A model generated the notes under the pieces. It ran no database searches. It had not been told where the DNA came from and saw nothing but the letters and a program-made list of their open reading frames with translations. A DNA stretch of 64,000 nucleotides from Myxococcota bacterium (GTDB lineage Bacteria; Myxococcota_A; UBA9160; UBA6930), in the NCBI GenBank assembly GCA_965223415.1, contig OZ245002.1, positions 2,784,001 to 2,848,000 of the forward strand. Direction: 5' to 3'. How positions within the stretch are numbered: position 1 is the first letter of the stretch; every line of letters starts with the position of its first letter. Of the stretch, positions 84 to 50,292 are shown piece by piece. The translations under genes were made by a program, and so were the position numbers.

Positions 84-953
84 CTACCCGCCGATCGGCG
101 TCCCCGCCTCCTCCGTGAGGCGCACGAACGCCCGGGAGAGCTCGTCCATCACCGGGCGTTGCCCGTTGCCGATGGGTCGGCCGTCGAAGGAGCCGACCGG
201 CACGATCCGTGCGCCGCTGCCCGAGAGGAAGACCTCGTCCGCGGCGAAGAGGTCGAACCGCCCGAGCCTCCGCACCTCGGCGGCGATGCCCTCTTGCGCC
301 GCCAGCTCCAGAAGGCTGCGACGCGTGATGCCCTCGAGCGCCCCGTCGGTGGCCGGCGGCGTCACCAGGACGCCGTCGCGCACGGCGAAGACATTGGCCA
401 CGGAGGCCTCGGCCACGTGGCCTCCGGTGTTCAGCAGGAGGGCCTCGTCGGCGCCCCGCTGGCGGGCCTCGAGCTTGGCGAGGGCGCTTCCGAGGTAGTT
501 CAGGCTCTTGACCCGCGGGTCGAGCACGTCGGCCGGCGGCCGCCGCCAGCTCGAGGTCACGAGCGCGATGCCTTCCCTGAGCTTCTCCTCCGGGTAGATC
601 CGCACTTCGTCGGCGATGCAGACGATGCGGGCGCGCGGGCAGGTGGTGGGATCGACGCCGAGGGCACCTTCGCCCCGGGAGACGATCAGGCGCAGGTAGG
701 CCTCGTCCCGCCCGAAAGCGCGGGCCGTCGCGAGGGTCGCCTCGCGGGCCGCTTCGATCCCGCCCGGGATGTCCAGGGCCAGGGCACGAGCCGCCGTCGC
801 GAGACGGACCAAGTGGTCCTCGAGGCGGAAGATCTTCCGGTGGTAGACCCGCATGCCCTCGAAGACGCCGTCGCCGTAGAGGAAGCCGTGATCGGTCACC
901 GGGATGCGCGCGTCCTCGGGCGCAACGATCCCACCGTCGAGCCACACCTTCAC
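84..953 (-). CDS. ilvE: Branched-chain amino acid aminotransferase (class IV PLP)
   Basis: MKVWLDG...DHGFLYGDGVFEG, VKSLNY, EASVANVF and LEGITR motifs. The GTG start overlaps the IclR stop (GTGA at 950-953). Confidence 0.9.
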   Translation of the reverse strand: MKVWLDGGIVAPEDARIPVTDHGFLYGDGVFEGMRVYHRKIFRLEDHLVRLATAARALALDIPGGIEAAREATLATARAFGRDEAYLRLIVSRGEGALGVDPTTCPRARIVCIADEVRIYPEEKLREGIALVTSSWRRPPADVLDPRVKSLNYLGSALAKLEARQRGADEALLLNTGGHVAEASVANVFAVRDGVLVTPPATDGALEGITRRSLLELAAQEGIAAEVRRLGRFDLFAADEVFLSGSGARIVPVGSFDGRPIGNGQRPVMDELSRAFVRLTEEAGTPIGG

Positions 954-1720
954 GAGCCCGCCTCCCGGATGCGCGGGCGGGGCGCGCGCAGCCGCTCCTC
1001 GATGCGTCCGGCGGCGACGCGCAGGCGTTGGACCAGGGGCATCGCTCCGAGTCGCTCGATCTGCTCCGAGGCGGCGGCGACCGCGAGAGCGGCCTCGAGC
1101 CGCTGCCCGTTCCAGAGCGGCACCGCCACGACGGACATCCCGGGGATCCACTCGCCGCGGTTCTCCGCCCACCCGCGCAGGCGCACGCGGCGCACCTCCG
1201 TCTCCAGGGCGGCGTGGCTCGTCGCGGTGCGGTCGGTGAAGGGCTCGAGCGCACTTCCGCCCAGGGCCACGGCACCCGGCGCGAACGCCAGCACGAGCTT
1301 GCCGATGGCGGTGGCGTGCACGGGGATGCCCTCGCCCACCCGCGGTGCCGCCCGCAGGAAGCCGGTCCCCTCGACCTGGTCCAGCACGAGGATGCGGCCC
1401 GCCCGCGGCCCGGCCAGGAACACCGTCTCCCCGAGCTCGCCCGCCGCGGCCTCCAGCTCGGGACGGGCGAGGGACAGCAGCGGATCCCGCTCCAGCTGGG
1501 CCAGCCCGAGCGCCACGAGGGCGGAGCCCGTGCGGTAGCGCCGCCGATCGTCCTGCTCCACGAGCCCCCGGCGCGCCAGGGAGGTGAGCAGGCGGTGGGT
1601 CGTGGACTTCCCGAGCCCGAGGGTCCGGGCCAGGGCAGTGACGCCAGCGGGCTCCTGGGCCGTGCTGAGCGCGAACAGCAGATCGACCGCGTTGTCGACT
1701 GTCGAGAGAGTTTGTTCCAT
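950..1720 (-). CDS. IclR-family transcriptional regulator
   Basis: N-terminal HTH (GVTALARTLGLGKSTTHRLL) and IclR effector domain (PVHATAIGK, VRLRGWA, VAVP). Confidence 0.92.
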   Translation of the reverse strand: MEQTLSTVDNAVDLLFALSTAQEPAGVTALARTLGLGKSTTHRLLTSLARRGLVEQDDRRRYRTGSALVALGLAQLERDPLLSLARPELEAAAGELGETVFLAGPRAGRILVLDQVEGTGFLRAAPRVGEGIPVHATAIGKLVLAFAPGAVALGGSALEPFTDRTATSHAALETEVRRVRLRGWAENRGEWIPGMSVVAVPLWNGQRLEAALAVAAASEQIERLGAMPLVQRLRVAAGRIEERLRAPRPRIREAGS

Positions 1721-1892: not shown

Positions 1893-3047
1893 GTGGCGGA
1901 CTTCGAGCGCATCGAGAATGCATCCGAACTCGAAGCGCTGGCTCGGGAGCTGCTGAAGCAGAAGGTGGTCGCCTTCGATACGGAGGCGGACAGCTTCTAC
2001 CACTACTTCGACAAGACCTGTCTGGTGCAGGTCGCGACGAAGCGGCGCATCTACCTGATCGATCCGCTCGCCCTCGGGGGCCCGGCGGAGCTCCAGCCGC
2101 TCGCACCGGTGATGGCGTCGCCGGACATCCGCAAGATCTTCCACGCCGCCGAGTACGACCTGTTCGTCCTGAAGCGCGATTGCGGCTTCACCTTCGCGAG
2201 CCTCTTCGACACGATGATCAGTGCCCAGCTTCTGGGATACCCGGCCATCGGACTGGCGGCGCTGATCGAGCGCCACTTCGAGATCAAGCTGCCCAAGGAC
2301 GAGCAGCGCTCGGATTGGTCGGCCCGCCCGCTCCGGGACAGCCAGCTCACCTACGCCGCGGCGGACGTCACCCATCTGATTCCGTTGGCGAAGCTGCTGG
2401 AGAAGGAGCTCAAGAAGGCCGGCCGGCTGGACTGGGCCCAGGAGGAGTTCGAGACCCTCACCCAACGCCAGTGGCCCGAGCGGGAGTTCGACCGGCTGGG
2501 CTACCTGCGCATCAAGGGCGCCCGCGCCCTGGATCCCAAGGCGCTGTCGGTGTTGCGCGAGCTCTATCTAGTGCGCGACAAGCGCGCGCGGGACATCGAC
2601 CGGCCGCCGTTCAAGGTGCTGGGCAACCGCGCACTGCTCGAGATCGCCGAGCGCATGCCGCGGACGGATGCCGCGCTGAGCAAGGTGAAGGGCGTCACGG
2701 ACCTGATCCTCCGGCGCTTCGGCCGCGAGATCCTCGCCGCGGTCGAGCGTGGCGCCCAGAAGAACCACGGCCCGGTTCCGAAGAAGATGGGCGGCAACGG
2801 CTCCGGCCGCCGCCGCATGGACCGCACGACCGAGAAACGGGTGGCAGCCCTCAAGCGTTGGCGCACCGGCCGCGCCAAGGACCTGGCGATGGATCCCGGC
2901 GTGCTGTGCCCGAACGCGACCCTCGAGACGATCGCGTGGAAGAAGCCGAAGCAGGCCTCGGAGCTCGAAGGCCTTCCGGGCGTGAAGGGCTGGTTCGCCC
3001 GCAACTTCGGCAGCGAGATCGTCGAGGCGCTCGAGGCCGACGGGTAG
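1893..3047 (+). CDS. rnd: Ribonuclease D (DEDD exonuclease with two HRDC domains)
   Basis: AFDTE, KIFHAAEYD, LFDT, SDWSARPL and YAAADV motifs; C-terminal HRDC-like repeats. Confidence 0.92.
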   Translation: MADFERIENASELEALARELLKQKVVAFDTEADSFYHYFDKTCLVQVATKRRIYLIDPLALGGPAELQPLAPVMASPDIRKIFHAAEYDLFVLKRDCGFTFASLFDTMISAQLLGYPAIGLAALIERHFEIKLPKDEQRSDWSARPLRDSQLTYAAADVTHLIPLAKLLEKELKKAGRLDWAQEEFETLTQRQWPEREFDRLGYLRIKGARALDPKALSVLRELYLVRDKRARDIDRPPFKVLGNRALLEIAERMPRTDAALSKVKGVTDLILRRFGREILAAVERGAQKNHGPVPKKMGGNGSGRRRMDRTTEKRVAALKRWRTGRAKDLAMDPGVLCPNATLETIAWKKPKQASELEGLPGVKGWFARNFGSEIVEALEADG

Positions 3048-3086
3048 GGGCCCGTACGCGGGACGTCTCGTGCGGAGACCGGGGCG

Positions 3087-3278
3087 GGGCCGGGTGCGGG
3101 TGCTTGCGCTGGTCTCCTTGGCATCCGGGTGTGCGGGACGGGGCCCTCTCCTTGCCCGAGAGTCGGCGGCGGGGATGGATGGAGCTCCAGGGCCTCTGGA
3201 GGGCCCTGGCGAGGCGTTCGGGTAGGACGGCGCCGCATGGCGGGATCCGTCGCTCGCTCCAGCACCCGCACCCGGCCC
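3087..3278. repeat. Long imperfect hairpin bounded by an 18-bp perfect inverted repeat (REP/MITE-like)
   Basis: gggccgggtgcgggtgct (3087-3104) / agcacccgcacccggccc (3261-3278), with an internal hairpin ccagggcc..ggccctgg at ~3187-3209. Confidence 0.55.
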
Positions 3279-3509
3279 GAGGACCGGCTCGTCAGGCCGT
3301 TCGGGGTGAAGAGCGCGGAGGGCGCGAGCCCTCCCGGCGCAAGCCCAGCGAGCCTTGCGGCCGGTGCGATGAGGCGAGCGCAGCGACGTCCTGATTCCGG
3401 CACCCGACCGAAGACGGCGAGCGAGCGAGAGCCCGGAGGGCGCGTGCCCCTCCGAGAGCAAGCCCTGCCGGGGCGCGCAGTGAGCCGAAGGCGAACGAAG
3501 AATCACGAC

Positions 3510-3547
3510 AAAAAGGAAAAGGCCCTCCGGAACTTCCGGAGGGCCTT
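3510..3547 (-). terminator. Rho-independent terminator, minus strand
   Basis: Perfect stem aaggccctccgga/tccggagggcctt (3519-3547) followed on the minus strand by UUUUCCUUUUU. Confidence 0.85.
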
Positions 3548-3700
3548 CGATCAACCTGGAGTCTTGGCGTTGGCCGAGTCAGGCGGGGTGCCGTTCTGGG
3601 GGAAAGCGCCTTAGCAGACTCGGTTACTCCTCGACTCGGGATTCGAAGGTCTGCGCGCCCGATGAGACCGTTCGATTCCCATTCCAGGTTGGCTCCACGC
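3510..3700 (-). ncRNA. Putative structured small RNA (~190 nt), family unassigned
   Basis: Closing helix 3552-3560/3683-3691 with hairpins at 3638-3680 and 3574-3623; flanked by a sigma54-like promoter and an intrinsic terminator; no credible CDS. Confidence 0.65.
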
Positions 3701-3710
3701 TGTTGGGTAT

Positions 3711-3727
3711 TACACGTGGCGTGCCAA
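3711..3727 (-). promoter_or_regulatory. Sigma54-type -24/-12 promoter
   Basis: TTGGCACGCCACGTGTA versus consensus TGGCACG-N4-TTGC: perfect -24 element, GG-N10-GT spacing, non-consensus -12. Confidence 0.6.
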
Positions 3728-3753
3728 CCCGCAGGGTCGGCGCCGACCCGCCC

Positions 3754-3766
3754 CAACTCATTGATT
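3754..3766 (-). promoter_or_regulatory. IHF binding site
   Basis: AATCAATGAGTTG matches WATCAANNNNTTR exactly and lies ~30 bp upstream of the -24 element. Confidence 0.65.
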
Positions 3767-3982
3767 TTGCTTGGTTTCTTCGCCAGCCGGGCCGAGAGCA
3801 GGATCGCGGAGGCTGCCGCCGGATGATGCAGGCGTGAGCCCCGCGGATTCGGGGCCCCGGGGTAAAACTAGTGGTGCCGCACCGGGTTGCGCCCCCGCAG
3901 GCCAGTGCCACATGCGTTGGCGGCGCCACTCCGGGCGGCACGGTCTCGTTCCCGGGGCGGCAGGCGTTATCCTGCACGCCTC

Positions 3983-5287
<1,305 letters not shown>

Positions 5288-5299
5288 TCAGGAGACGGA

Positions 5300-7255
<1,956 letters not shown>

Positions 7256-22649: not shown

Positions 22650-23342
22650 ATGACGCAGCCCGTCACCCAGACAGCCAGCGCAAGGGCAGAGGACAGGGCA
22701 GAAGAAGCCGCCGCGCCGCGGCCCGGCCGCGCGGCGCGCACCCGCCAACGGATCCTCGAGGCCGCCGGCCTGTGCTTCAGCACCGGCGGCTACGCCAAGA
22801 CCACGGTCGAGGCCATCGCCGCCCGCGCGGGCGTGTCGAAGGGCATCGTCTACCACCACTTCCGGGGCAAGGAGGAGATCCTCGAGCGCGTCCTCGAGGC
22901 GACCCTCACCGAGTGGACGAACGTGTCCCGCCTCGACGAGGTGCTGGCCCGGGGCGGCGCCGTGCTCGGCGCCATCGCCGAGGTCCACCGCAAGTCGATG
23001 GCCTTCGCCCGCGAGAACCCGATGGCCCGCTCGCTGCTCCAGGTGGATCACGAGGTCCTGCTGACCGTCGCAGGCAGCCGCCAGGTGCGCGAGTCGATCG
23101 AGCGACACCGCCGCAACCTGGTGGGAGCGCTGCGCCACGGCATCGCCAACGGCGAGCTGCGCCCGGAGATCGATCCCGAGCGCGCGGCCGACATCCTGCA
23201 CGTCCATTCCATGGGGCTGATCGACCAGCTCCTCGACCCGGAAGGGCTCGAGGTGACGGAAGAGCTGGTCGACTGCGGCCTCGACATCCTGTTTCACGGC
23301 ATGGCAGCGCGCCCCCGCCAGGCCGACGGAGCCGAACGATGA
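22650..23342 (+). CDS. TetR/AcrR-family regulator
   Basis: TTVEAIAARAGVSKGIVYHHFRGKE HTH. Confidence 0.93.
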   Translation: MTQPVTQTASARAEDRAEEAAAPRPGRAARTRQRILEAAGLCFSTGGYAKTTVEAIAARAGVSKGIVYHHFRGKEEILERVLEATLTEWTNVSRLDEVLARGGAVLGAIAEVHRKSMAFARENPMARSLLQVDHEVLLTVAGSRQVRESIERHRRNLVGALRHGIANGELRPEIDPERAADILHVHSMGLIDQLLDPEGLEVTEELVDCGLDILFHGMAARPRQADGAER

Positions 23343-24433
23343 ACATGCTGAAGTGGAATCCCATCCTTGCGGCGCTGGGGCTTGCCCTCGCGGCGGCGGC
23401 GCCGGCCGGCGCCGAGGACGGCGAGAAGCGGCGCATCGCCCTCGAGCGGGTGCGGAGCGAGCGGCTGCACGCCTCGATCGCGGCCTCGGGCTCGATCGAG
23501 GCGAGGCGGATCACGGAGGTCGGCTCCGAGGTGAGCGGACGCATCACCCGCGTGTTCGTCGACGTGGGCGAAGTTGTGGAAGAGGGCGACGCGCTCTTCC
23601 AGATCGATCCGGAGCCCTACGAGATGGCGCTCGCGGAGGCCCGGGCGGGCCTGGCCCTGGCACGGGCCGAGAGCGAGAACGCCGCCGCCGAGGCGGAGCG
23701 CATCGCCAAGCTGGTCGAGCTCTCCGCCGCCTCCAAGCAGCGCTTCGACAAGATCGTCACCCAGGCCGAGGTGGCGCGGGCCCGCGTGCGCCAGGGCAGG
23801 GCGGGGCTGGATCGGGCGAAGCGCAACCTCGACCGCACCCTCGTCGTGGCGCCCTACGCGGCCAGCGTCGTGGAGCGGCGCGCCCACGAGGGCAGCATGT
23901 CGAGCGGCGCTCCCATCCTCGTGCTCCAGGAGCGCGGCGCCCTCGAGTTCATCATCGACGTGCCGGAGGCGGCGGCCGCACCGGTGCGCCCGGGCGATGC
24001 GGTCAAGCTCTACCTGGAGGGGCTGCCGGATCCCCTCGAGAGCCAGGTGGACCGGGTGAGCGCACGGGTCGACCCGCAGACGCGCACCTATCAGGTACGC
24101 GGCACCGCCCTCGATCCGTCCGGCGTGGTGAAGGCTGGCTCCTACGTGCGGGCCGAGCTCCAGGCGCGAAGGCCGGAGGCCCGGCCCGTCGCGCATCGGT
24201 CGTCGGTCCTCACCCGCGACGGGCGCACCTTCGTCATGCGCATCGACGGCGGAGTCGTGCGCCAGACTCCGGTGCGTGTCGGAATCCGGGCAGGCGGGGA
24301 CGTCGAGCTGCTCCAGGGCGTCACCGCCGGCGATCTGGTCGTCAGCGGAAGCGACGCAACGCGCATCGCGGAGGGCACGCGCATCCGCCTGCGTGAGCCG
24401 GTGCAGGCCGCCCGGAGCGGAGACGCGCCGTGA
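23339..24433 (+). CDS. RND efflux periplasmic adaptor subunit
   Basis: Signal peptide, lipoyl-like SEVSGRI..V.VGE, coiled coil, VDPQTRT. Confidence 0.9.
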   Translation: MNMLKWNPILAALGLALAAAAPAGAEDGEKRRIALERVRSERLHASIAASGSIEARRITEVGSEVSGRITRVFVDVGEVVEEGDALFQIDPEPYEMALAEARAGLALARAESENAAAEAERIAKLVELSAASKQRFDKIVTQAEVARARVRQGRAGLDRAKRNLDRTLVVAPYAASVVERRAHEGSMSSGAPILVLQERGALEFIIDVPEAAAAPVRPGDAVKLYLEGLPDPLESQVDRVSARVDPQTRTYQVRGTALDPSGVVKAGSYVRAELQARRPEARPVAHRSSVLTRDGRTFVMRIDGGVVRQTPVRVGIRAGGDVELLQGVTAGDLVVSGSDATRIAEGTRIRLREPVQAARSGDAP

Positions 24434-27400
24434 CCCTCTCGGACGTCTCGGTCCGCCGCCCGGTCTTCGCCGCCATGCTCATCCTGGGCCTGGTCGTGAT
24501 CGGCCTGATCTCCATGTCGCGGCTCGAGATGAAGCTCGAGCCCGACATCGACTTCCCCTTCCTCCAGGTGATGACGGAGCTGCGCGGCGCCTCGCCCGAG
24601 ACCGTGGAGCGCGAGGTCACCGACATCATCGAGGAGGCGATCAACTCGATCGAGGGCATCGAGGAGATGGGCTCCACCTCCTCCCAGGGCCTGTCGCGGG
24701 TGTCGGTGCAGTTCGAGCTGGGCTCCGACGTCGACGTGAAGGCCCAGGAGGTGCGGGACAAGGTGGCGCTCGCCCGTGCCAAGCTCCCCCTCGACGTCGA
24801 GGACCCGCTCGTCCAGAAGTGGGACCTGGACGCGATGTCCTTCATGACGATCGTCCTGGGCGGCACCGTCGACATCCGCGAGATCTCGGACATCGCCGAG
24901 CACGAGGTGAAGGAGCGACTGGAGCGCATCGGCGGCGTCGGCTCCGTCGGCATCCAGGGCGCCCGCGAGCGCGAGGTGCGGATCTGGCTCGATCCCCTGC
25001 GGCTCACCGGCTACGGACTCTCGATCGAGGACGTGGCGGACACCCTGCGGCGCGAGAACGCCGAGCTCGCCAGCGGCCGGATCGAGGGCGCGAGCCAGGA
25101 GTGGTCGGTCACCACCCAGGGCAAGGCGCGCAGCATCGAGGAGTTCGGCGAGATCATCGTGGCGGAACGCGCCGGGCGCCTCGTGCACCTGCGCGACGTG
25201 GCAGTGGTCGAAGACGGCATGGCCGAGGCCAAGAGCGTGGCCAAGCTGAACGGCAACCCGGGCGTCGCCATCGAGATCCAGCAGCAGAGCGGCTCGGACC
25301 TGGTCGCCGCCGCCCGCGAGATCCGCAAGGAGATCGAGCTCCTCTCGGGGGAGCTCCCCGCCGGCGTCGAGCTCAAGATCGCGCGGGACTACGCGAAGAT
25401 CGTCGAGGACCAGGTCTACTCCGTGCTCTTCGACATGGTGCTGGCCGCGGCTCTCGTCGTGGTGGTGGTGCTGCTCTTCCTGCGGAACTTCCGCTCCACC
25501 TTCATCTCGGCGCTGGCGATTCCAGCCAGCCTCATCGCGACCTTCACGTTCTTCCTGCTGGCCGGCCTCTCCCTCAACAACATGACCCTGATGGCGCTCT
25601 CGCTGTCCATCGGCCTCGTGATCGACGACGCGATCGTCGTGCTCGAGAGCATCTTCCGGAAGGTCGAAGAAGGCGAGCGGCCCTACGACGCCGCCCTCCA
25701 GGGCTCGCGGGAGGTCGTGCTCGCGGTGGTGTCGACCACCCTGGCGGTGTGCGGCGTCTTCGTGCCCATCTTCTTCATGACCAGCACGATGGGCCGCTAC
25801 TTCTTCGAGTTCGGCGTCACCGTGATCGTCGCCGTTTCGGTCTCCACCGTCGTGGCGTTCACCCTCACCCCGAGCCTCGCGAGCCGCACACTCAGCCGCA
25901 CCACGACGAAGGAAGGCGCCGTATTCCGCTTCCTGGAGACGGGCCTCCGTGGCATGGAGACGGGCTACCGACGCCTGCTCGGGTGGTCGCTCGGCCACCA
26001 GACGCTGATCGTCATCTTCACCTGCCTGGTCGTCGGTGGCGGCTGCGCCGTGATGACCACCGTGCCCTTCAACTACTTCACCCGCGACGACATGGGCGAG
26101 GCCTACGTCCGCATCAAGCTGCCGATCGGCACGCCCCTGCCCGCGACGGAGCGGATCGTCCGGCGCATGGACCAGGCGATCCGCACCCATCCCGAGGTGC
26201 GCGACACGCTGGCCATCTCCGGGGACATCCACAAGCACGAGCCCCACAAGGCCGGCATCCACATCTACCTCTCGAAGAAGCAGGAGCGCGAGACGTCGCT
26301 CGAAGAGCTCTTCGGGGAGCTCCGGGCACTGGCCGCCGAAGCGGCGCCGCGAGTCGAACAGATGAGCGTCGGCTACCCGAACATGATGAGCGGCGGCGAG
26401 TACTCGGAGATCCAGTACGCCATCCAGGGCCCGAACCTCGAGAAGCTGCAGCAGTTCACGGGCGATCTGCTGGAGCGGCTGAAGGGCGACCCGCGCTTCG
26501 TCGACGTGCGCAGCTCCTTCGAGACCGGAAAGCCGCAGATCACCCTCGACGTCGACCGGGGCCGCGCCGCGGACCTCGGCGTGTCTTCCGTGCAGCTCGG
26601 CCGGACGCTCCGGACCCTCCTCGCCGGTGAGAAGGTCGGCTCCTTCGAGGACCGGGGAAACCGCTACGACGTGCGCGTGCAGGTACTCCCGGAGTATCGG
26701 GACGACCCGTCCAAGCTCGACCTGATCCGCGTACGCTCCCTGCGTGGCGAGCTCGTGCCGTTGGCCGGCGCCGCCGACGTGAGCATGGGCGACGGACCCG
26801 TCGAGGTGCTGCGCAGCGCGCGGACCCGCATGATCGAGGTGCGGGCCAACACCGCCGGAGACACCTCGCTCGGCGAGGCCATGGCCGTGGTCGAGGGCTG
26901 GGCGCGGGATCTGGGCATCGAGCGCCCCTACAGGCTGAAGCGCGACGGCCAGGCCGACTCGATGGCCGATGCCATGATCGACGTCGCCTTCGCTCTGGGC
27001 CTGGCGATGCTGGCGATCTACATGATCCTGGCCTCGCTCTTCAACTCCCTGAGCCAGCCGCTCGTGATCATGATGTCGGCGCCCCTCTCCTTCATCGGCG
27101 GCGTCCTGGCACTGAAGGTCGCCGGCCTCTCCTTCGACATCATGAGTGCCATGGGCCTGCTCGTGCTGATGGGCCTGGTGATGAAGAACGGCATCCTGCT
27201 CGTCGACTACACCAACCAGCTTCGCGAGCGGGGCGTGGAGAAACGCGAGGCGATCCTGCGGGCGGGCCCCGTGCGCATGCGCCCGGTGCTGATGACCTCG
27301 ATGGCCTTGATCTGCGGGCTCTTGCCGATGGCGCTCTCGAACGCGACGGGCTCGGAGTTTCGCGCGCCGATGGCGGTGATCGTGATCGGAGGCCTCGCCA

Positions 27401-27543
27401 CGTCGACCCTGCTCACCCTCGTGGTGGTGCCCGTCTTCTACAGCCTGGTCGACGGCGCCACGGTGCGCATGCGCGACTACGTGCGCCGCCTGCGCGGCCG
27501 GCCGGCCCGGGCCGCCGCCTCACCCGTCGCCGGCGGCCGGTAG
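24430..27543 (+). CDS. RND efflux permease (AcrB/CzcA family)
   Basis: 1037 aa; GASPETVE, IDDAIVVLE, KNGILLVD and RMRPVLMT motifs. Confidence 0.95.
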   Translation: MTLSDVSVRRPVFAAMLILGLVVIGLISMSRLEMKLEPDIDFPFLQVMTELRGASPETVEREVTDIIEEAINSIEGIEEMGSTSSQGLSRVSVQFELGSDVDVKAQEVRDKVALARAKLPLDVEDPLVQKWDLDAMSFMTIVLGGTVDIREISDIAEHEVKERLERIGGVGSVGIQGAREREVRIWLDPLRLTGYGLSIEDVADTLRRENAELASGRIEGASQEWSVTTQGKARSIEEFGEIIVAERAGRLVHLRDVAVVEDGMAEAKSVAKLNGNPGVAIEIQQQSGSDLVAAAREIRKEIELLSGELPAGVELKIARDYAKIVEDQVYSVLFDMVLAAALVVVVVLLFLRNFRSTFISALAIPASLIATFTFFLLAGLSLNNMTLMALSLSIGLVIDDAIVVLESIFRKVEEGERPYDAALQGSREVVLAVVSTTLAVCGVFVPIFFMTSTMGRYFFEFGVTVIVAVSVSTVVAFTLTPSLASRTLSRTTTKEGAVFRFLETGLRGMETGYRRLLGWSLGHQTLIVIFTCLVVGGGCAVMTTVPFNYFTRDDMGEAYVRIKLPIGTPLPATERIVRRMDQAIRTHPEVRDTLAISGDIHKHEPHKAGIHIYLSKKQERETSLEELFGELRALAAEAAPRVEQMSVGYPNMMSGGEYSEIQYAIQGPNLEKLQQFTGDLLERLKGDPRFVDVRSSFETGKPQITLDVDRGRAADLGVSSVQLGRTLRTLLAGEKVGSFEDRGNRYDVRVQVLPEYRDDPSKLDLIRVRSLRGELVPLAGAADVSMGDGPVEVLRSARTRMIEVRANTAGDTSLGEAMAVVEGWARDLGIERPYRLKRDGQADSMADAMIDVAFALGLAMLAIYMILASLFNSLSQPLVIMMSAPLSFIGGVLALKVAGLSFDIMSAMGLLVLMGLVMKNGILLVDYTNQLRERGVEKREAILRAGPVRMRPVLMTSMALICGLLPMALSNATGSEFRAPMAVIVIGGLATSTLLTLVVVPVFYSLVDGATVRMRDYVRRLRGRPARAAASPVAGGR

Positions 27544-29048: not shown

Positions 29049-30573
29049 CCCTGATCCGGCATTGAGATCACGGATCCGAGCGTAGGTCTGGCGGGCTCAC
29101 GCGGCGAGCGCGGTCTCGGCGGCCCGGATGGTGGAGCGGCTGCGCGAGGACGCGGCGATTCGGAGCGAAGCGCGTCCGGCAGGCCGAGCGATGCGGCCAG
29201 GGAGCTGGATCAGCTCGAAGCGGAGCGTGCGGAGCGAGGGGAAGCGGAGCCGGGCGGTCCGCTTTCGGCCGTTGGGTCGCTCTGGCAGGCCAAGCGTGGC
29301 TTGGAAGTCCCGCACCAGGTTGTGGGTCAGGGCACTGAGCAGCTGCCAGTTGCTGTTGGCGTCCCAGTCCTGGGTCGGGATGGTGGCGAACGCCAGGTGC
29401 TGTTTGAGCTCGGCCAGCGTCTTCTCGTGGCCGCCGCGTCCGGCCATGAAGGCCCAGACGGCGGCCTCGCTGGTCCGCTTGTTCGTCGCGACCATCGAGT
29501 ACTCGTAGTGGCCATCGTCCGGGGTGAAGAGGTCGAGCTGGAAGTTCTTCGCGCTTCGCCCGGAGACCTTCTTGCGGAACACCACGATCCGCTCGCAGCG
29601 CTTCCACTGTGGGATCCGGTGGACGACGGAGAAGGCGTCGACGCTCGCGTTGACGCGGTGCCAACGCTTCCGGGCGGCGATCTTCTCACGCACGCCGAGC
29701 CAGCGCCACATGGGGACCTTGAGGGCGTACTCCACGCGAGAGGCCGTGAGAACCTCGAGAACGGCCTTCTGGAAGAAGGCGCCATCGAGCCGCACCTCGA
29801 TCGGGACCCGATCGAGGCGCCGCTTCGCGTCGCCCAGGAGAAAGGCCAGCTTCTCCGCAGCGCCCACCGCATCGTTCACATTGCCCGGCCGGTTCCATAC
29901 GCCGAGCAGCTGGCTCGTCTGCGCCAGGTGCGCCGTCAGCGGGTAGTAGGACGGGTCCTTCGGGTGATGTGGGTTGAAGCCGCGCTCGGCGCCGTCCACG
30001 TACTCGCCCGTCCGAAGCACGGTGCCGTCCAGCTCGATCGTGGCCCGCTCCAAGCCGAGCCCTGTGTGGGTTCCATAGGCCATGTCCCGCAGCAGTTCGT
30101 TCAGACGATCGCGGTAGCCCGACGTCAGCTCCTTCAGGTTCCTCGCCAGGGTCCGCTCGTCCGGAAGCCGCTGCAATCGGACGAACCGCCGAAACAACGG
30201 ATCCCGATCGAGCACCCGGACATGCGAGAGACGGCTCCCTCCCAGCAGCAGCATCCCCACCACCACCAGCATGCAGCGGAAGGATCCGTAGTCCGAGTCG
30301 AACGCCCGATCCGCAAAGGCCGCTTTCAGGCGCTCTGCCCAAAAGCGGTCGAAGAAGCGCCGGAACAGCTCCAGCCCGCCGTAGCTCGTCAGCGCCTCAT
30401 CCGTGAAGGCGATCGACAATTCGCCCTTGACGCGGGCTCGAATCCGGTGTCTGCTTAGCTTCACGAATGTGGCTCCTCGGAGGCATGATGGTGGTTGGCA
30501 CTTCCATCAAGCACACCGACGGAGCCACTTTCAATTCCGGGCTTTCCCTACACCTCGCAATGCCGGATCAGGG
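29049..30573 (-). mobile_element. IS1380-family insertion sequence, apparently intact (1525 bp)
   Basis: Perfect 16-bp TIRs ccctgatccggcattg (29049-29064) / caatgccggatcaggg (30558-30573); CTAG duplicated at 29045-29048 and 30574-30577. Confidence 0.92.
29097..30464 (-). CDS. IS1380-family DDE transposase
   Basis: LTSYGGL, IELDGT, SYYPL, RPGN, VRLDGAF and RGGHEK..ELK motifs. Confidence 0.92.
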   Translation of the reverse strand: MKLSRHRIRARVKGELSIAFTDEALTSYGGLELFRRFFDRFWAERLKAAFADRAFDSDYGSFRCMLVVVGMLLLGGSRLSHVRVLDRDPLFRRFVRLQRLPDERTLARNLKELTSGYRDRLNELLRDMAYGTHTGLGLERATIELDGTVLRTGEYVDGAERGFNPHHPKDPSYYPLTAHLAQTSQLLGVWNRPGNVNDAVGAAEKLAFLLGDAKRRLDRVPIEVRLDGAFFQKAVLEVLTASRVEYALKVPMWRWLGVREKIAARKRWHRVNASVDAFSVVHRIPQWKRCERIVVFRKKVSGRSAKNFQLDLFTPDDGHYEYSMVATNKRTSEAAVWAFMAGRGGHEKTLAELKQHLAFATIPTQDWDANSNWQLLSALTHNLVRDFQATLGLPERPNGRKRTARLRFPSLRTLRFELIQLPGRIARPAGRASLRIAASSRSRSTIRAAETALAA

Positions 30574-41737: not shown

Positions 41738-41844
41738 CGCGCGGAAGCTAGAGCCCGTCCCAGAAATATCCAGCGTGCCCGTCCTAGGAAGGCCGGTACG
41801 CGTTTCACATTCCTGAGACCGGCTCTAGCGAACCTGCTACGTTG

Positions 41845-41940
41845 GCTTCGGAGCCTAGGGGTGGCCTGCGCGGCGGGCCTGAGAGAAGACCCTTGGAACC
41901 TGATCTCGTTCGCGCGAGCGTAGGGAAGGCTCGGAAGCCG
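41845..41940 (+). promoter_or_regulatory. TPP riboswitch
   Basis: AGGGGTG...CTGAGA...ACCC..GAACCTGATC...GCGTAGGGA core closed by gagcct/aggctc, directly upstream of thiC. Confidence 0.95.
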
Positions 41941-41982
41941 CCTCGGTCCTCCGGCCCACCTCCTCGAGCAAGGAGCTTCGCC

Positions 41983-43722
41983 ATGGCCGGCTTCCCGCTT
42001 CCTCCGTTGGGGCACAACCCGTCCTCGAGCGCCGCAGGCACCACGCCCGGCAGCTTCGCGAACCCGCCGGACATTGGCGGCCCGCTCGCCTTCAGCTCGC
42101 CGGACACGCCGGGCATGCCGCTTCCCTCGGAGAAGACCGCCTGGGATTTCCTCCCGCCGGGCTGGCGCCGGGACGAGGCCAGCGGCTTCGCCGTCGCGCC
42201 GGAGGGCTTCGAGCCCGTCACCCAGCTCGAGCACGCGCGCCTCGGAACGACGACGCCCGAGATGCGCCGCGTCGCCGAGCGCGAGCCACACCTCACGCCC
42301 GAGCAGGTGCGCGACGAGGTCGCCGCCGGCCGCATGGTCATCCCCGCCAACCGCGTCCACCGCAGCTACCGCCTCGACCCGATGGCCATCGGCCGGGCCA
42401 GCCAGACCAAGGTGAACGCCAACATGGGCGCCTCTCCCATCTCCAGCGGCACCGCCGAGGAGGTGGAGAAGCTGCGTTGGGCCGAGCGCTGGCAGGCCGA
42501 CACGGTGATGGATCTCTCGACCGGCGGCGATCTCGATCGCACCCGCGAGGCGATCATCCAGAGCTCGGAGGTGCCGATCGGCACGGTCCCGATCTACTCG
42601 ATGATCCTCGGCCGCAAGATCGAGGACCTCGACGACGCCACCATCCTCGCCTCCCTCGAGCACCAGGCGCGCCAGGGCGTCGACTACTTCACCATCCACG
42701 CTGGCGTGCTGCAGGAGCACCTGCCCTGGGTGGAGAAGCGCCTGATCGGCATCGTCTCCCGCGGCGGGTCCTTGCTGGCCAAGTGGATGATCCACCACGG
42801 CAAGCAGAACCCGATGTACACGCTGTGGGACGAGATCTGCGAGGTGCTGCGGCGCTGGGACGTCACCTTCTCGATCGGCGATGGCCTGCGCCCCGGCGGC
42901 CTGGCCGACGCCAGCGACGCGGCGCAGCTCGGCGAGCTCGAGACCCTGGGCGAGCTGACCGAGCGCGCTTGGCGCCACGGCTGCCAGGTGATGATCGAAG
43001 GGCCGGGCCACATGCCCTTCGACCAGGTCGAGTACAACATGAAGCTGCAGCGCCGGCTGTGCCACGGCGCGCCCTTCTACGTGCTCGGCCCGCTGGTCAC
43101 CGACATCTTCCCGGGCTACGACCACATCACGAGCTGCATCGGCGCCACGGCGGCGGCCTATCACGGCGCGTCGATGCTCTGCTACGTGACGCCAAAGGAG
43201 CACCTCGGCCTTCCCAAGCGCGACGACGTGAAACAGGGCTGCATCGCCTACAAGATCGCCGCCCATGCCGCCGACGTGGCTCTCGGCATCCCCGGCACCC
43301 GCGATCGCGACGACGAGCTCACCAAGGCCCGCGCCGCGCTGAACTGGGAGAAGCACTTCGAGCTCTCCTTCGACCCGGACACGGCCCGCGCCTACCACGA
43401 CGAGGACCTCGACGTGGACACGGACTTCTGCGCCATGTGCGGCCACGACTGGTGCTCGGTCCGCATCAGCAAGGAGTTCACCCAGTTTGTGAGCGGCAAG
43501 GACGAGAGCTACGCCTGGGACAAGCCGAAGATCACCGAGGCGCTCTCGCCCGAGCAGAAGGCGATCCTCGAGAAGCGCGGTGTGCTCGCGCCGGACGAGC
43601 TGCGCCGGCTCGCGTCGAAGACCCGCCACGCCATGGGCGCCGACGAGGGCAAGGCGGCGTGCCACAGCGACGTCTCCTCGGACGAATCCGCCCAGCATCT
43701 CCAGGACGAAGCGGTCGGGTAG
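41983..43722 (+). CDS. thiC: Phosphomethylpyrimidine synthase
   Basis: [37 protein letters not shown] and CAMCGHDWC motifs; AAGGAG RBS. Confidence 0.96.
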
Positions 43723-48512: not shown

Positions 48513-48879
48513 CAGCGATTCTCTGTGGTCGAGAAAATCGTCGAAAAAGGCAGCTTCATTGAGAATGTCGAAGATATCCTCCTCCCCTCCCTGGGCCCGG
48601 TGACACCGCAGGCGGTTCACCCAAGCTTCCTCAAGGAGGGCGCGGAACCCCGCGGAGTTGCGGCCCGTTCCGGTATGCAAACAGCGGTTAGCCGGCTCTT
48701 CTGCGGCCTTTTCGGGTGAACCGCGCGCGTGTAGGCCGCACGGCGGGAATCGCGGCGGGGAAGATTGCGAAGCTCCGCGACGCATGCTCTACTCCCGGCT
48801 CTTCTGGGGTGAGCGTTGCCGGGTTCCTCCCTACAACCCGGCGGGACCCCCCGGAAACCCCCGATTTCAGGCTGGTCCC

Positions 48880-50292
48880 ATGCATCACCCCCCCAAGGTG
48901 TGGGACGGCGTTCTGACACGCCTCCGCACCCTGATGGCCCCGCTCGCCCTGGAGGCGTGGATCCTTCCGCTCGCCGTGCGGATGGAGGAAGAAGCGGGAG
49001 AGCTGCATCTCCTGGCGCCCGGCTCCTTTCACGAGGCGCGGGTGCGCAGCCGCTACCTGCACACGATCCGTGAGGCCGTCGACCGGGAGTGCGGTGGAGC
49101 GGTGGAGCTGCGCCTGAGCTCCGCCGAGGCGGAGGCGGCGCCGGGCCCCTGCACCGCGGCTCCCCGCTCTCCGGCGCGCCCCGCACCGGAGGCGGGCGAT
49201 CCCCGGCCGGCGCGACCGGTGCAGGCGGAGCTTCTTCACACCTTCGACAGCTTCGTCGTGGGGCCGGAGAACGCCCTCGCGCGGGAGGCGGTGGTCGCCC
49301 TGGCGGGGCGGCGGCAGGCGGGGATCAGTCCGCTCTTCCTGGCCGGCCCGCCGGGCGTCGGCAAGTCGCACCTGGTGCGAGCGCTGGTCGCCGAGGTGGG
49401 CGGTGTCTACGTCTCCGCCGAGGCGTTCACGAACGCCTTCACCGGCGCCCTCCGCCGGCGTGACACCGACGCCTTCAAGCGGCGGTTCCGGGAGTGCACG
49501 CTCCTCGTCGTCGAGGACGTGCAGTTCCTCGAGGGCAAGAACGCCACTCAGAACGAGCTGCACCACACCCTCGAGCACCTCTCGATGGCCGGGCGTCCCG
49601 TGGTGCTCACCGGCGACCGGCTGCCGCGGGAGATGCGCGGGCTGCAGGAGCGGCTCGTCTCCGAGATGACCCGCGGTCTCGTGGCGGAGATCGAGTCGCC
49701 CGAACGCGAGCTGCGCCGGCGCATCGTGAAGACGAAGGCCTCCCGAGGCGGCGTGCGCCTGCCGGAAGCATGCCTCGACCTGCTGGTCGACCGGGCCAGC
49801 GGAAGCGTGCGCGATCTCGAGGGGGCGCTGATCCAGGTGGTCGCCAGCGCGTCGCTGCTCTCGCGGCCGATCGATCGCACGCTCACCGAGGCGGCGCTCC
49901 GCAAGATCACGCCCGCCGAGGCGAGCCCCCTGCGGCTCGACACGGTGGTCGAGCGCGTGGCGAGCTTCTTCGGCGTGAGCCCCACCGAGCTCTCGGGCCG
50001 CAGCCGGCGCAGGACGGTGCTCGTGCCGCGCCAGATCGCCGTCTACCTCGCCCATCGCTACACGAACGCCACCCTCACCGATATCGGCCGCGCGGTCGGA
50101 CGCGACCTTCCCGCCGTGAAGAACGCCGTCCAGGTGGTCGAGCGCGCCATCCTGGAGAAGGCCCCGCTCCGCTACCAGGTGGAGGCGTTGGTGGAGCGGC
50201 TCGGCGTCCCGGCCGGAAGCGACCCGGCGAAGCCGGCCCGCGTGCCCCTCCGGGTGGTGCGGCCCGCTCCAGACCGGCAGGAGCAGGCGTGA
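48880..50292 (+). CDS. DnaA paralogue (domains I-IV, divergent)
   Basis: HTFDSFVVG..N, GPPGVGKSHL, VEDVQF, SVRDLEGAL and PRQIAVYL motifs; no dnaN adjacent. Confidence 0.85.
   Translation: MHHPPKVWDGVLTRLRTLMAPLALEAWILPLAVRMEEEAGELHLLAPGSFHEARVRSRYLHTIREAVDRECGGAVELRLSSAEAEAAPGPCTAAPRSPARPAPEAGDPRPARPVQAELLHTFDSFVVGPENALAREAVVALAGRRQAGISPLFLAGPPGVGKSHLVRALVAEVGGVYVSAEAFTNAFTGALRRRDTDAFKRRFRECTLLVVEDVQFLEGKNATQNELHHTLEHLSMAGRPVVLTGDRLPREMRGLQERLVSEMTRGLVAEIESPERELRRRIVKTKASRGGVRLPEACLDLLVDRASGSVRDLEGALIQVVASASLLSRPIDRTLTEAALRKITPAEASPLRLDTVVERVASFFGVSPTELSGRSRRRTVLVPRQIAVYLAHRYTNATLTDIGRAVGRDLPAVKNAVQVVERAILEKAPLRYQVEALVERLGVPAGSDPAKPARVPLRVVRPAPDRQEQA

Follow-up and report, generated by a model that had tools for sequence, protein, structure and literature searches.

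To our knowledge, few sigma-54-dependent small RNAs (sRNAs) have been described, namely GlmY/Z, Qrr, CrcZ, NrsZ, NfiS, and Pxr, and each of those we know of heads an important physiological switch. The sRNAs CrcZ, NrsZ, and NfiS (Pseudomonas) and Qrr (Vibrio) rely on enhancers and place post-transcriptional control under a two-component or NtrC-type signal, and GlmY and GlmZ fall into a size class of 150 to 200 nt. Here we place in this context a gene on a 64-kb stretch of GC-rich DNA from an uncultured Myxococcota bacterium (hereafter the window), located between rnd, the gene of RNase D, and pepP, the gene of aminopeptidase P. A first-pass annotation of the window had proposed at this site an unannotated sRNA gene of the sigma-54 and integration host factor (IHF) type, convergent with rnd. 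Thirty syntenic copies, covariation in the RNA helices, and conserved promoter parts strongly support that proposal, and on these comparative grounds the locus is very probably a real, independently transcribed structured RNA gene. We further consider it reasonably probable that this is a stand-alone noncoding RNA gene of ≈190 nt encoding an enhancer-dependent, sigma-54-controlled, trans-acting sRNA, the first recognized member of a new family in an uncultured Myxococcota clade.

The described system closest in architecture is that of GlmY/GlmZ and GlrR in the Enterobacteriaceae, where the sigma-54 promoter is reported to be preceded by IHF sites and, beyond these and over 100 bp upstream, by three activator sites, an arrangement conserved across species (PMC3045617). 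As published, that system shares with the predicted layout of the window locus a stand-alone sRNA gene, a -24/-12 promoter, upstream activator sites, and IHF. The two differ in the activator sites, reported as TGTC-N10-GACA there and reading TGCNNC-N5-GNNGCA here, as well as in phylum and in fold, and neither the GlmY nor the GlmZ family of Rfam matches here. In addition, glmY adjoins glrK-glrR, whereas the locus described here has no linked two-component system. Qrr, reported as a sigma-54-dependent sRNA of Vibrio (PMC10162802), and the Pseudomonas sRNAs CrcZ, NrsZ, and NfiS are likewise enhancer-dependent, and the 17-bp TGC...GCA geometry described for the NtrC box resembles that of the dyad found here, but none of the four has a sequence or Rfam relationship to this RNA. 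CrcZ differs further in its mode of action, which relies on A-rich protein-binding motifs in repeated copies; this RNA shows no such motifs.

A second comparison concerns the myxobacterial sRNA Pxr. Its transcription is reported to proceed from a sigma-54 promoter and to require the NtrC-like activator PxrR (PMC5568312, PMC10217877), and RNase D is reported to convert Pxr-XL to Pxr-L (PMC10217877). Pxr is described as a 108-nt triple stem-loop always found between nla19/pxrR and a NADH dehydrogenase gene (PMC5568312) and as confined to the Cystobacterineae (PMC11928866). The shared phylum, the sigma-54 promoter with its activator, the RNase D link in that literature set beside the RNase D neighbor here, and a C-rich stretch that Pxr also carries according to its published probe sequence would fit a distant homolog or functional counterpart of Pxr that is matured by the adjacent RNase D. 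We nevertheless regard such a relationship as very improbable. The RNA described here is ≈190 nt long, forms a three-way junction, is flanked by rnd and pepP, and has no adjacent activator gene, so the parallel drawn in the first-pass annotation stands as an analogy of sigma-54 control and phylum but not of location, size, or fold. A 26-nt probe-derived segment, the only part of Pxr compared, aligns no better than shuffles in 29/29 copies. Moreover, rnd of M. xanthus is described as co-transcribed with an M1 peptidase gene, in an account whose relevant excerpt mentions no sRNA there. The related idea that RNase D trims the new RNA found no backing, in that gene neighborhood alone links the two and four loci keep rnd and pepP without the sRNA.

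Homologs, synteny, and RNA fold

Relatives were gathered by a contig search with PepP as query, which returned 80 loci from metagenome-assembled genomes (MAGs) of related Myxococcota; the nearest of these are MAG contigs whose pepP is 81% and 76% identical to the window gene. The RNA region was found by blastn upstream of and antisense to pepP in 14/80 loci. In L001 and L002 it is 86 to 87% identical over ≈220 nt, with the similarity starting at the -24 element, and more distant loci, whose pepP is only 58 to 66% identical, give matches of 29 to 34 nt with 88 to 97% identity at a C-rich core. A covariance model built from 11 sequences matched the window and 20 loci with E < 1e-6 (21 matches) and gave eight further, weak matches (E 0.003-0.9), all at the syntenic position, with one copy only in the window; a motif scan added the homolog in L033. 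The total is thus 30 copies, one in the window and the others in 29 of the 80 loci (28 by covariance model and L033 by motif). The gene order rnd, convergent sRNA, pepP, acs was found by tblastn in all copies; with convergent rnd as its downstream neighbor in every case, the RNA is no leader. At the level of sequence, the gene has its own promoter and a Rho-independent terminator, and no gene in the same direction lies downstream. Upstream of pepP, rnd was found in 33 loci, of which 29 have the RNA and four (L005, L018, L019, and L039) lack it, the rnd and pepP matches of these four lying 130 to 200 nt apart; loci labeled Kofleriaceae or Haliangiales, with a pepP ≈50% identical, have neither rnd nor the RNA there. 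Five contigs (L011, L012, L044, L046, and L050) are titled Spirochaetaceae or Spirochaetales, yet show the same rnd-sRNA-pepP-acs or pepP-acs arrangement with a PepP 58 to 66% identical, and these labels probably misstate the lineage.

The distance to pepP is less constant than that to rnd. In L015, L022, L038, and L054, ≈1.4 kb separates the enhancer from pepP, and in L006 a gene for a TonB-dependent receptor lies between the sRNA and pepP; in all five the RNA gene remains beside rnd. We also note that an open reading frame (ORF) of 408 to 463 residues, divergent from the sRNA, occupies the interval between enhancer and pepP in L015 (2718-3944), L022 (2561-3952), and L038 (2738-3991), each on the plus strand; it begins within or right next to the enhancer region, and no Pfam domain was found in any of the three. 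This retention beside rnd, the convergence with rnd in 30/30 copies, and the placement of the distal dyads 43 to 59 nt before the pepP start codon (the most distal of them only 43 nt from GTG 3983) are what would be expected if the locus acted in cis, either by convergent transcription or read-through that modulates rnd or by an activator at the distal dyads that controls pepP, with the RNA product secondary. Set against this are the compensatory changes and invariant loops in the RNA body, which selection on transcription alone would not maintain, the strong terminator 460 nt ahead of the rnd stop, and the four loci that keep rnd and pepP without the sRNA, and the insertions may stem from only two events; we therefore judge action in cis improbable.

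The elements listed in the first-pass annotation, that is, the promoter, the IHF consensus, the three-way junction, the hairpins, the UUUCCCCCAG...CACCCC loop, and the terminator, are all present in the sequence and its predicted fold (Table 1). The minimum free energy structure of 3505-3705 on the minus strand (201 nt; -91.5 kcal/mol, z = -4.79, with 0/200 shuffles as stable) is a three-way junction, and the same junction appears in each of 11 homologs folded singly. Once the rnd-pepP regions of relatives had been collected and aligned, the expected conservation and covariation were both found: in an alignment of 20 sequences, standard pairs account for 85.9% of cells, compared with 67.3% after shuffling (0/500 shuffles reach the observed value) and 25 to 46% with the 3' partners slid, and both-sided changes occur in 30/39 pairs. 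Paired cells amount to 92.9% in P1, 92.8% in P2, 74.3% in P3a, and 80.5% in P3b, with both-sided changes in 6/8, 13/14 (compensatory), 4/7, and 6/6 pairs, respectively. These pair counts were taken from alignment A6, since MAFFT alignments put P3 and the 5' part of three sequences wrongly. The terminator stem contains nine GC pairs, and an equivalent hairpin with a U-tail directly follows P1 in L001, L002, L022, L038, and L054. A conformational switch had also been suggested; CCGAGUC does occur twice and GCAGAC/GUCUGC is present, but the alternative pairings are not conserved in the closest relatives, L001 and L002.

Two segments of the RNA are invariant. The first, CGGGCGCG at the tip of P2, consists of two pairs and a GGCG loop predicted to be 98% unpaired, is identical in 20/20 aligned long forms, and is present in short forms too. 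The second is the core at the tip of P3, AGGCGCUUUCCCCCAGAACnGCACCCCGC. For UUUCCCCCA, the mean predicted unpaired probability is 0.70, compared with 0.32 for whole molecules; the value is 0.63 in the window and lies above the average of the same molecule in 20/20 cases. A kissing contact between the GGCG of the P2 cap and CGCC of the core was considered and is unsupported, as the core partner differs in L044, L024, and L035 with no compensatory change, and the cap persists in short forms from which the core is absent. Columns of a possible inner core pairing (GGCG/CGCC or UUC/GAA) are either invariant or break without compensation.

That the locus is no RNA gene at all, but encodes a small protein or consists solely of regulatory sites acting at the DNA level, we regard as exceedingly improbable. 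Minus-strand ORFs of 154 residues (3292-3756) and 117 residues (3624-3977) do span the region; however, Pfam finds nothing in them, and they have no counterpart in L001, L002, or L025, where this was looked at specifically for the 154-residue frame. Single-base indels separate close relatives in the region, and the helix substitutions are compensatory. The first-pass statement that no credible coding sequence lies inside is consistent with this, there being no conserved frame in relatives. Nor does the RNA fall into a known family, again as first proposed. With Rfam 15, whose families include 6S, GlmY/GlmZ, CsrB/Rsm, and riboswitches, at the gathering threshold, the sole match in the window is a thiamine pyrophosphate (TPP) riboswitch elsewhere; with E up to 10, the interval 3200-4200 gives terminator-like ctRNA and chance miRNA matches only; and 16 homologous loci give none. 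A full-text literature search for the core sequence string matched no paper. The sRNA family is missing from Rfam 15, to which it would be an addition.

The family is modular. Nine short forms (L016, L020, L023, L030, L033, L034, L036, L042, and L046; ≈3300-3700, minus strand) retain the promoter and P2 but have lost the P3 core, in place of which they bear a CCAGGAG...CCCCUCCUG hairpin; in L030, a degenerate stretch resembling the core follows farther downstream. The 3' half of this hairpin resembles the anti-Shine-Dalgarno sequence. P1 and P2 are present and the core absent in L006, both modules occur together in L032 and L050, and several long forms outside the clade of the window carry extra 3' sequence with UCUCC motifs followed by a GC-rich terminal hairpin. 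As judged from these sequences, the universal parts of the family are the promoter apparatus and P2, and C-rich elements predicted to be single-stranded recur in varied guises.

Promoter, IHF site, and upstream dyads

The -24 element of the window, TGGCACG, is perfect relative to the sigma-54 consensus (GG at -24 and GC at -12, TGGCAC-N5-TTGC). Taken alone, the sigma-54 pattern match in the window is not significant: TGGCACGCCACGTGT (3712-3726) is the sole match to the relaxed pattern TGGCACRNNNNNTGY in the window, with an expectation of 0.32, and 27/100 shuffles contain at least one match. The IHF consensus WATCAANNNNTTR matches once in the 64 kb, with an expectation of 0.01 and any match in 1/100 shuffles. 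What lifts the observation above chance is mainly its conservation in relatives, not single-sequence statistics. TGGCAC-N5-xTG lies 25 to 45 nt before P1 in 30/30 copies, and the canonical TGC is found at -12 in 27/30, the exceptions being the window (TGT), L002 (TGT), and L001 (TGA). The proposed -24/-12 promoter is therefore borne out in its -24 element and its universal occurrence, but less so in the -12 element of the window. A scan of 2500-5500 for sigma-70 promoters gave 0 sites.

When aligned on the promoter, the upstream regions are unalignable except for three recurring features, namely a dyad, an IHF-like site, and the promoter itself. The dyad spans 17 bp with the consensus TGCNNC-N5-GNNGCA, read by eye from the listed sites, and typical forms are TGCCGCCTGAGGCGGCA and TGCATCATCAAGATGCA. 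The density of exact dyads is 2.99 per kb over the 300 upstream nt and 0.025 per kb over 278 kb of background, a 120-fold enrichment, and across copies the dyad recurs at fixed positions near -125 and -233. A dyad with at most one mismatch is found at -131 to -119 in 22/30 copies (15 exact) and at -239 to -227 in 16/30; the third position, -221 to -209, holds one in 6/30 copies, or in 16/30 if two mismatches are allowed. Four control windows contain such dyads (at most one mismatch) in 1, 0, 0, and 2 of 30 copies. In 17/29 copies, the IHF-like site that fits best begins between -65 and -67, with TT conserved and an A-tract lying ≈10 nt upstream, and the consensus is exact in three copies (window, L050, and L014).

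In the window, candidate activator sites thus lie at least 100 bp upstream, with dyads at -122, -214, and -232, and the IHF sequence match is situated between this enhancer and the promoter. The first-pass annotation had listed three enhancer palindromes, two of which (our distal dyads 1 and 2; Table 1) fall at dyad positions of relatives. The third, at 3875-3891, has one mismatch to the dyad and is centered at -183, where relatives have no dyad, and the best site of all, the proximal dyad, was missing from that list. The NtrC box TGCACCAnnnTGGTGCA is described as a 17-bp TGC...GCA palindrome (PMC8743547), and the dyad agrees with it in length and in the outer TGC...GCA. By this analogy, the geometry of the dyad suggests some member of the NtrC family as the activator. 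The layout of enhancer, IHF site, and promoter is textbook-like, and its positional conservation extends to the base-pair level over ≈30 species.

Candidate modes of action

The preferred reading of the locus as an enhancer-dependent, trans-acting sRNA gene entails the following sequence of events. An NtrC-type enhancer-binding protein would bind the 17-bp dyads, two of them centered near -125 and -233 and a third, weak one near -215, and IHF would bend the DNA at about -60. The activator would then drive sigma-54 RNA polymerase at the -24/-12 element, with transcription predicted to start at ≈3700 and to stop at the intrinsic terminator (3548-3508). The transcript would fold into the covariation-supported three-way junction, closed by P1, in which P2, capped by the invariant CGGGCGCG, may serve as a conserved handle for stability or protein binding and P3 would display the ≈30-nt C-rich core. 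Exposed C-runs (UUUCCCCCAG and CACCCC) could pair in trans with G-rich, Shine-Dalgarno-like regions of mRNAs encoded elsewhere, and such pairing would control translation or stability in answer to the signal sensed by the activator.

The last of these steps, trans action by pairing of C-runs with G-rich, Shine-Dalgarno-like mRNA regions, is put forward tentatively and by analogy. RsaE/RoxS, RepG, and the CCUCCUCCC sRNAs of alpha-proteobacteria use C-rich loops to pair with G-rich ribosome-binding sites. They resemble the RNA described here in presenting conserved unpaired C-runs on a structured scaffold, as predicted for UUUCCCCCAG in the window and for the CCCCUCCUG hairpin of the short forms, but they are not homologous and use sigma-70-type promoters, and the pairing here is a prediction. 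The use of the C-rich loop as a seed, already raised in the first-pass annotation, is consistent with its predicted accessibility; against it stand the absence of the core from about a third of the copies (≈10/30) and the lack of a target among the four neighboring genes.

Several further observations weigh against the reading of a sigma-54-dependent, base-pairing sRNA, and they are best considered together. The -12 element of the window is GT instead of the canonical GC, and the nearest relatives have GT (L002) and GA (L001). The Sigma54_activat domain (PF00158) was detected in none of the 124 window ORFs scanned (12 + 65 + 47), and rpoN did not turn up either. The 20-sequence alignment A6 is fitted to the covariance model, which makes the pair counts lean toward structure, and P3 is imperfectly aligned in it. 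When the core was run in RNAduplex against positions -45 to +21 of rnd (n = 17), pepP (20), acs (18), and iclR (6), mean z ranged from -0.27 to +0.26, no better than shuffled, so any targets lie elsewhere. L006 and the nine short forms lack the C-rich core, the latter keeping a different C-rich hairpin, and the core cannot therefore be the sole functional determinant. Finally, a 30-nt invariant block together with an invariant tetraloop hairpin exceeds what a short seed needs, which favors protein or tertiary contacts.

These last points bear on the main rival, in which the same gene and promoter yield a protein-binding or sequestering RNA, or a structured ribonucleoprotein RNA, like CrcZ or CsrB, and in which the P2 cap and the 30-nt core are sites of protein or tertiary contact and not antisense seeds. 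CrcZ likewise depends on sigma-54, CbrB, and IHF. The constancy of CGGGCGCG in long forms and its retention in short forms without the core, the constancy of the core over ≈30 nt while the flanking stems covary freely, and the lack of a complementary site in neighboring genes all agree with such a function. Each motif, however, is present in a single copy per RNA, whereas known sponges carry their sites in many repeats; the locus has no linked candidate for a protein partner; and the 3' modules differ greatly between clades, which is typical of base-pairing sRNAs. On this evidence, we consider a protein-binding RNA unlikely. A more specific form, in which the GGCG-capped hairpin and the 30-nt core belong to a new class of sigma-54-controlled structured ribonucleoprotein RNA and bind and titrate either a ribonuclease, perhaps the RNase D encoded next door, or a global RNA-binding regulator, appears distinctly unlikely; if true, this would make the RNA the deep-branching Myxococcota equivalent of the Pxr-RNase D checkpoint or of a sponge circuit of the CbrB-CrcZ type. 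For the sRNA gene as we read it, the DNA motif offers a way to find the activator and its regulon, and the RNA motif, with its unusually long invariant segments, a way to find targets or partners in this uncultured Myxococcota clade.

Locus and surrounding window

Table 1. Features of the sRNA gene and flanking genes in the window; promoter-related positions are relative to the predicted transcription start.
Feature	Coordinates	Strand	Sequence or detail	Basis
Predicted transcript, ≈190 nt	3508-3700	-	start ≈3700, 12 nt past the -12 element	promoter geometry and terminator
Sigma-54 promoter	3711-3727	-	TTGGCACGCCACGTGTA; -24 TTGGCACG, -12 GTGT(A)	motif; TGGCAC-N5-xTG in all homologs
IHF consensus	3754-3766	-	AATCAATGAGTTG, start ≈-66	exact WATCAANNNNTTR match
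Proximal enhancer dyad	3814-3830	-	TGCATCATCCGGCGGCA, center ≈-122	exact TGCNNC-N5-GNNGCA, only exact one in region
Distal enhancer dyad 1	3924-3940	-	TGCCGCCCGGAGTGGCG, center ≈-232	one mismatch to TGCNNC-N5-GNNGCA
Distal dyad 2, weak	3906-3922	-	CGCCAACGCATGTGGCA, center ≈-214	two mismatches; semi-conserved
P1, 5' strand	3684-3691	-	CAACCUGG	pairs with 3552-3559
P1, 3' strand	3552-3559	-	CCAGGUUG	relatives, e.g., CGAUCUGG/CCAGAUCG
P2 hairpin	3638-3680	-	apical CGGGCGCG at 3654-3661	covariation; invariant cap
P3 arm	3561-3637	-	outer stem, inner stem 3617-3623/3574-3580, core at tip	covariation; individual folds
C-rich core, near-invariant	3582-3611	-	AGGCGCUUUCCCCCAGAACGGCACCCCGCC	29-34-nt matches in relatives
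Intrinsic terminator	3508-3548	-	perfect 14-bp stem 3548-3518, U-rich tail 3517-3508	hairpin and UCCUUUUUGU
rnd, RNase D	1893-3047	+	exonuclease and HRDC	Pfam
pepP, aminopeptidase P	3887-5287	+	frame; likely start GTG 3983; AMP_N and M24	Pfam
acs, acetyl-CoA synthetase	5300-7255	+	downstream of pepP	
IclR regulator gene	950-1720	-	upstream side of rnd	Pfam

The sRNA gene lies within a rnd-pepP spacer of 935 nt, and a class IV aminotransferase gene is also found upstream of rnd. From the rnd stop to the sRNA terminator, the spacer (3050-3505) measures ≈460 nt, compared with ≈90 to 130 nt in L001, L004, and L015. Within it are several GC-rich inverted repeats as well as two direct repeats of ≈40 nt (3310-3349 and 3428-3468) at a distance of 118 nt. 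This 456-nt stretch is present in a single copy in the window, and the related loci yield only one 29-nt match to it (L013).

Elsewhere in the window, a scan for tRNA and tmRNA genes found none. The TPP riboswitch (RF00059, 65.8 bits, 41847-41943, plus strand) stands directly 5' of a ThiC radical-SAM gene (frame 41842-43722), an ordinary arrangement. A transposase gene with a DDE_Tnp_1_4 domain (29097-30464, minus strand) probably marks an insertion sequence, and an efflux operon (22650-27543, plus strand) encodes consecutively a TetR regulator, an HlyD-type membrane-fusion protein, and an AcrB-type transporter of the resistance-nodulation-division class. Finally, a DnaA homolog with Bac_DnaA, DnaA_N, and C-terminal helix-turn-helix domains is encoded at 48658-50292 on the plus strand, and a replication origin may accordingly lie close to the window.

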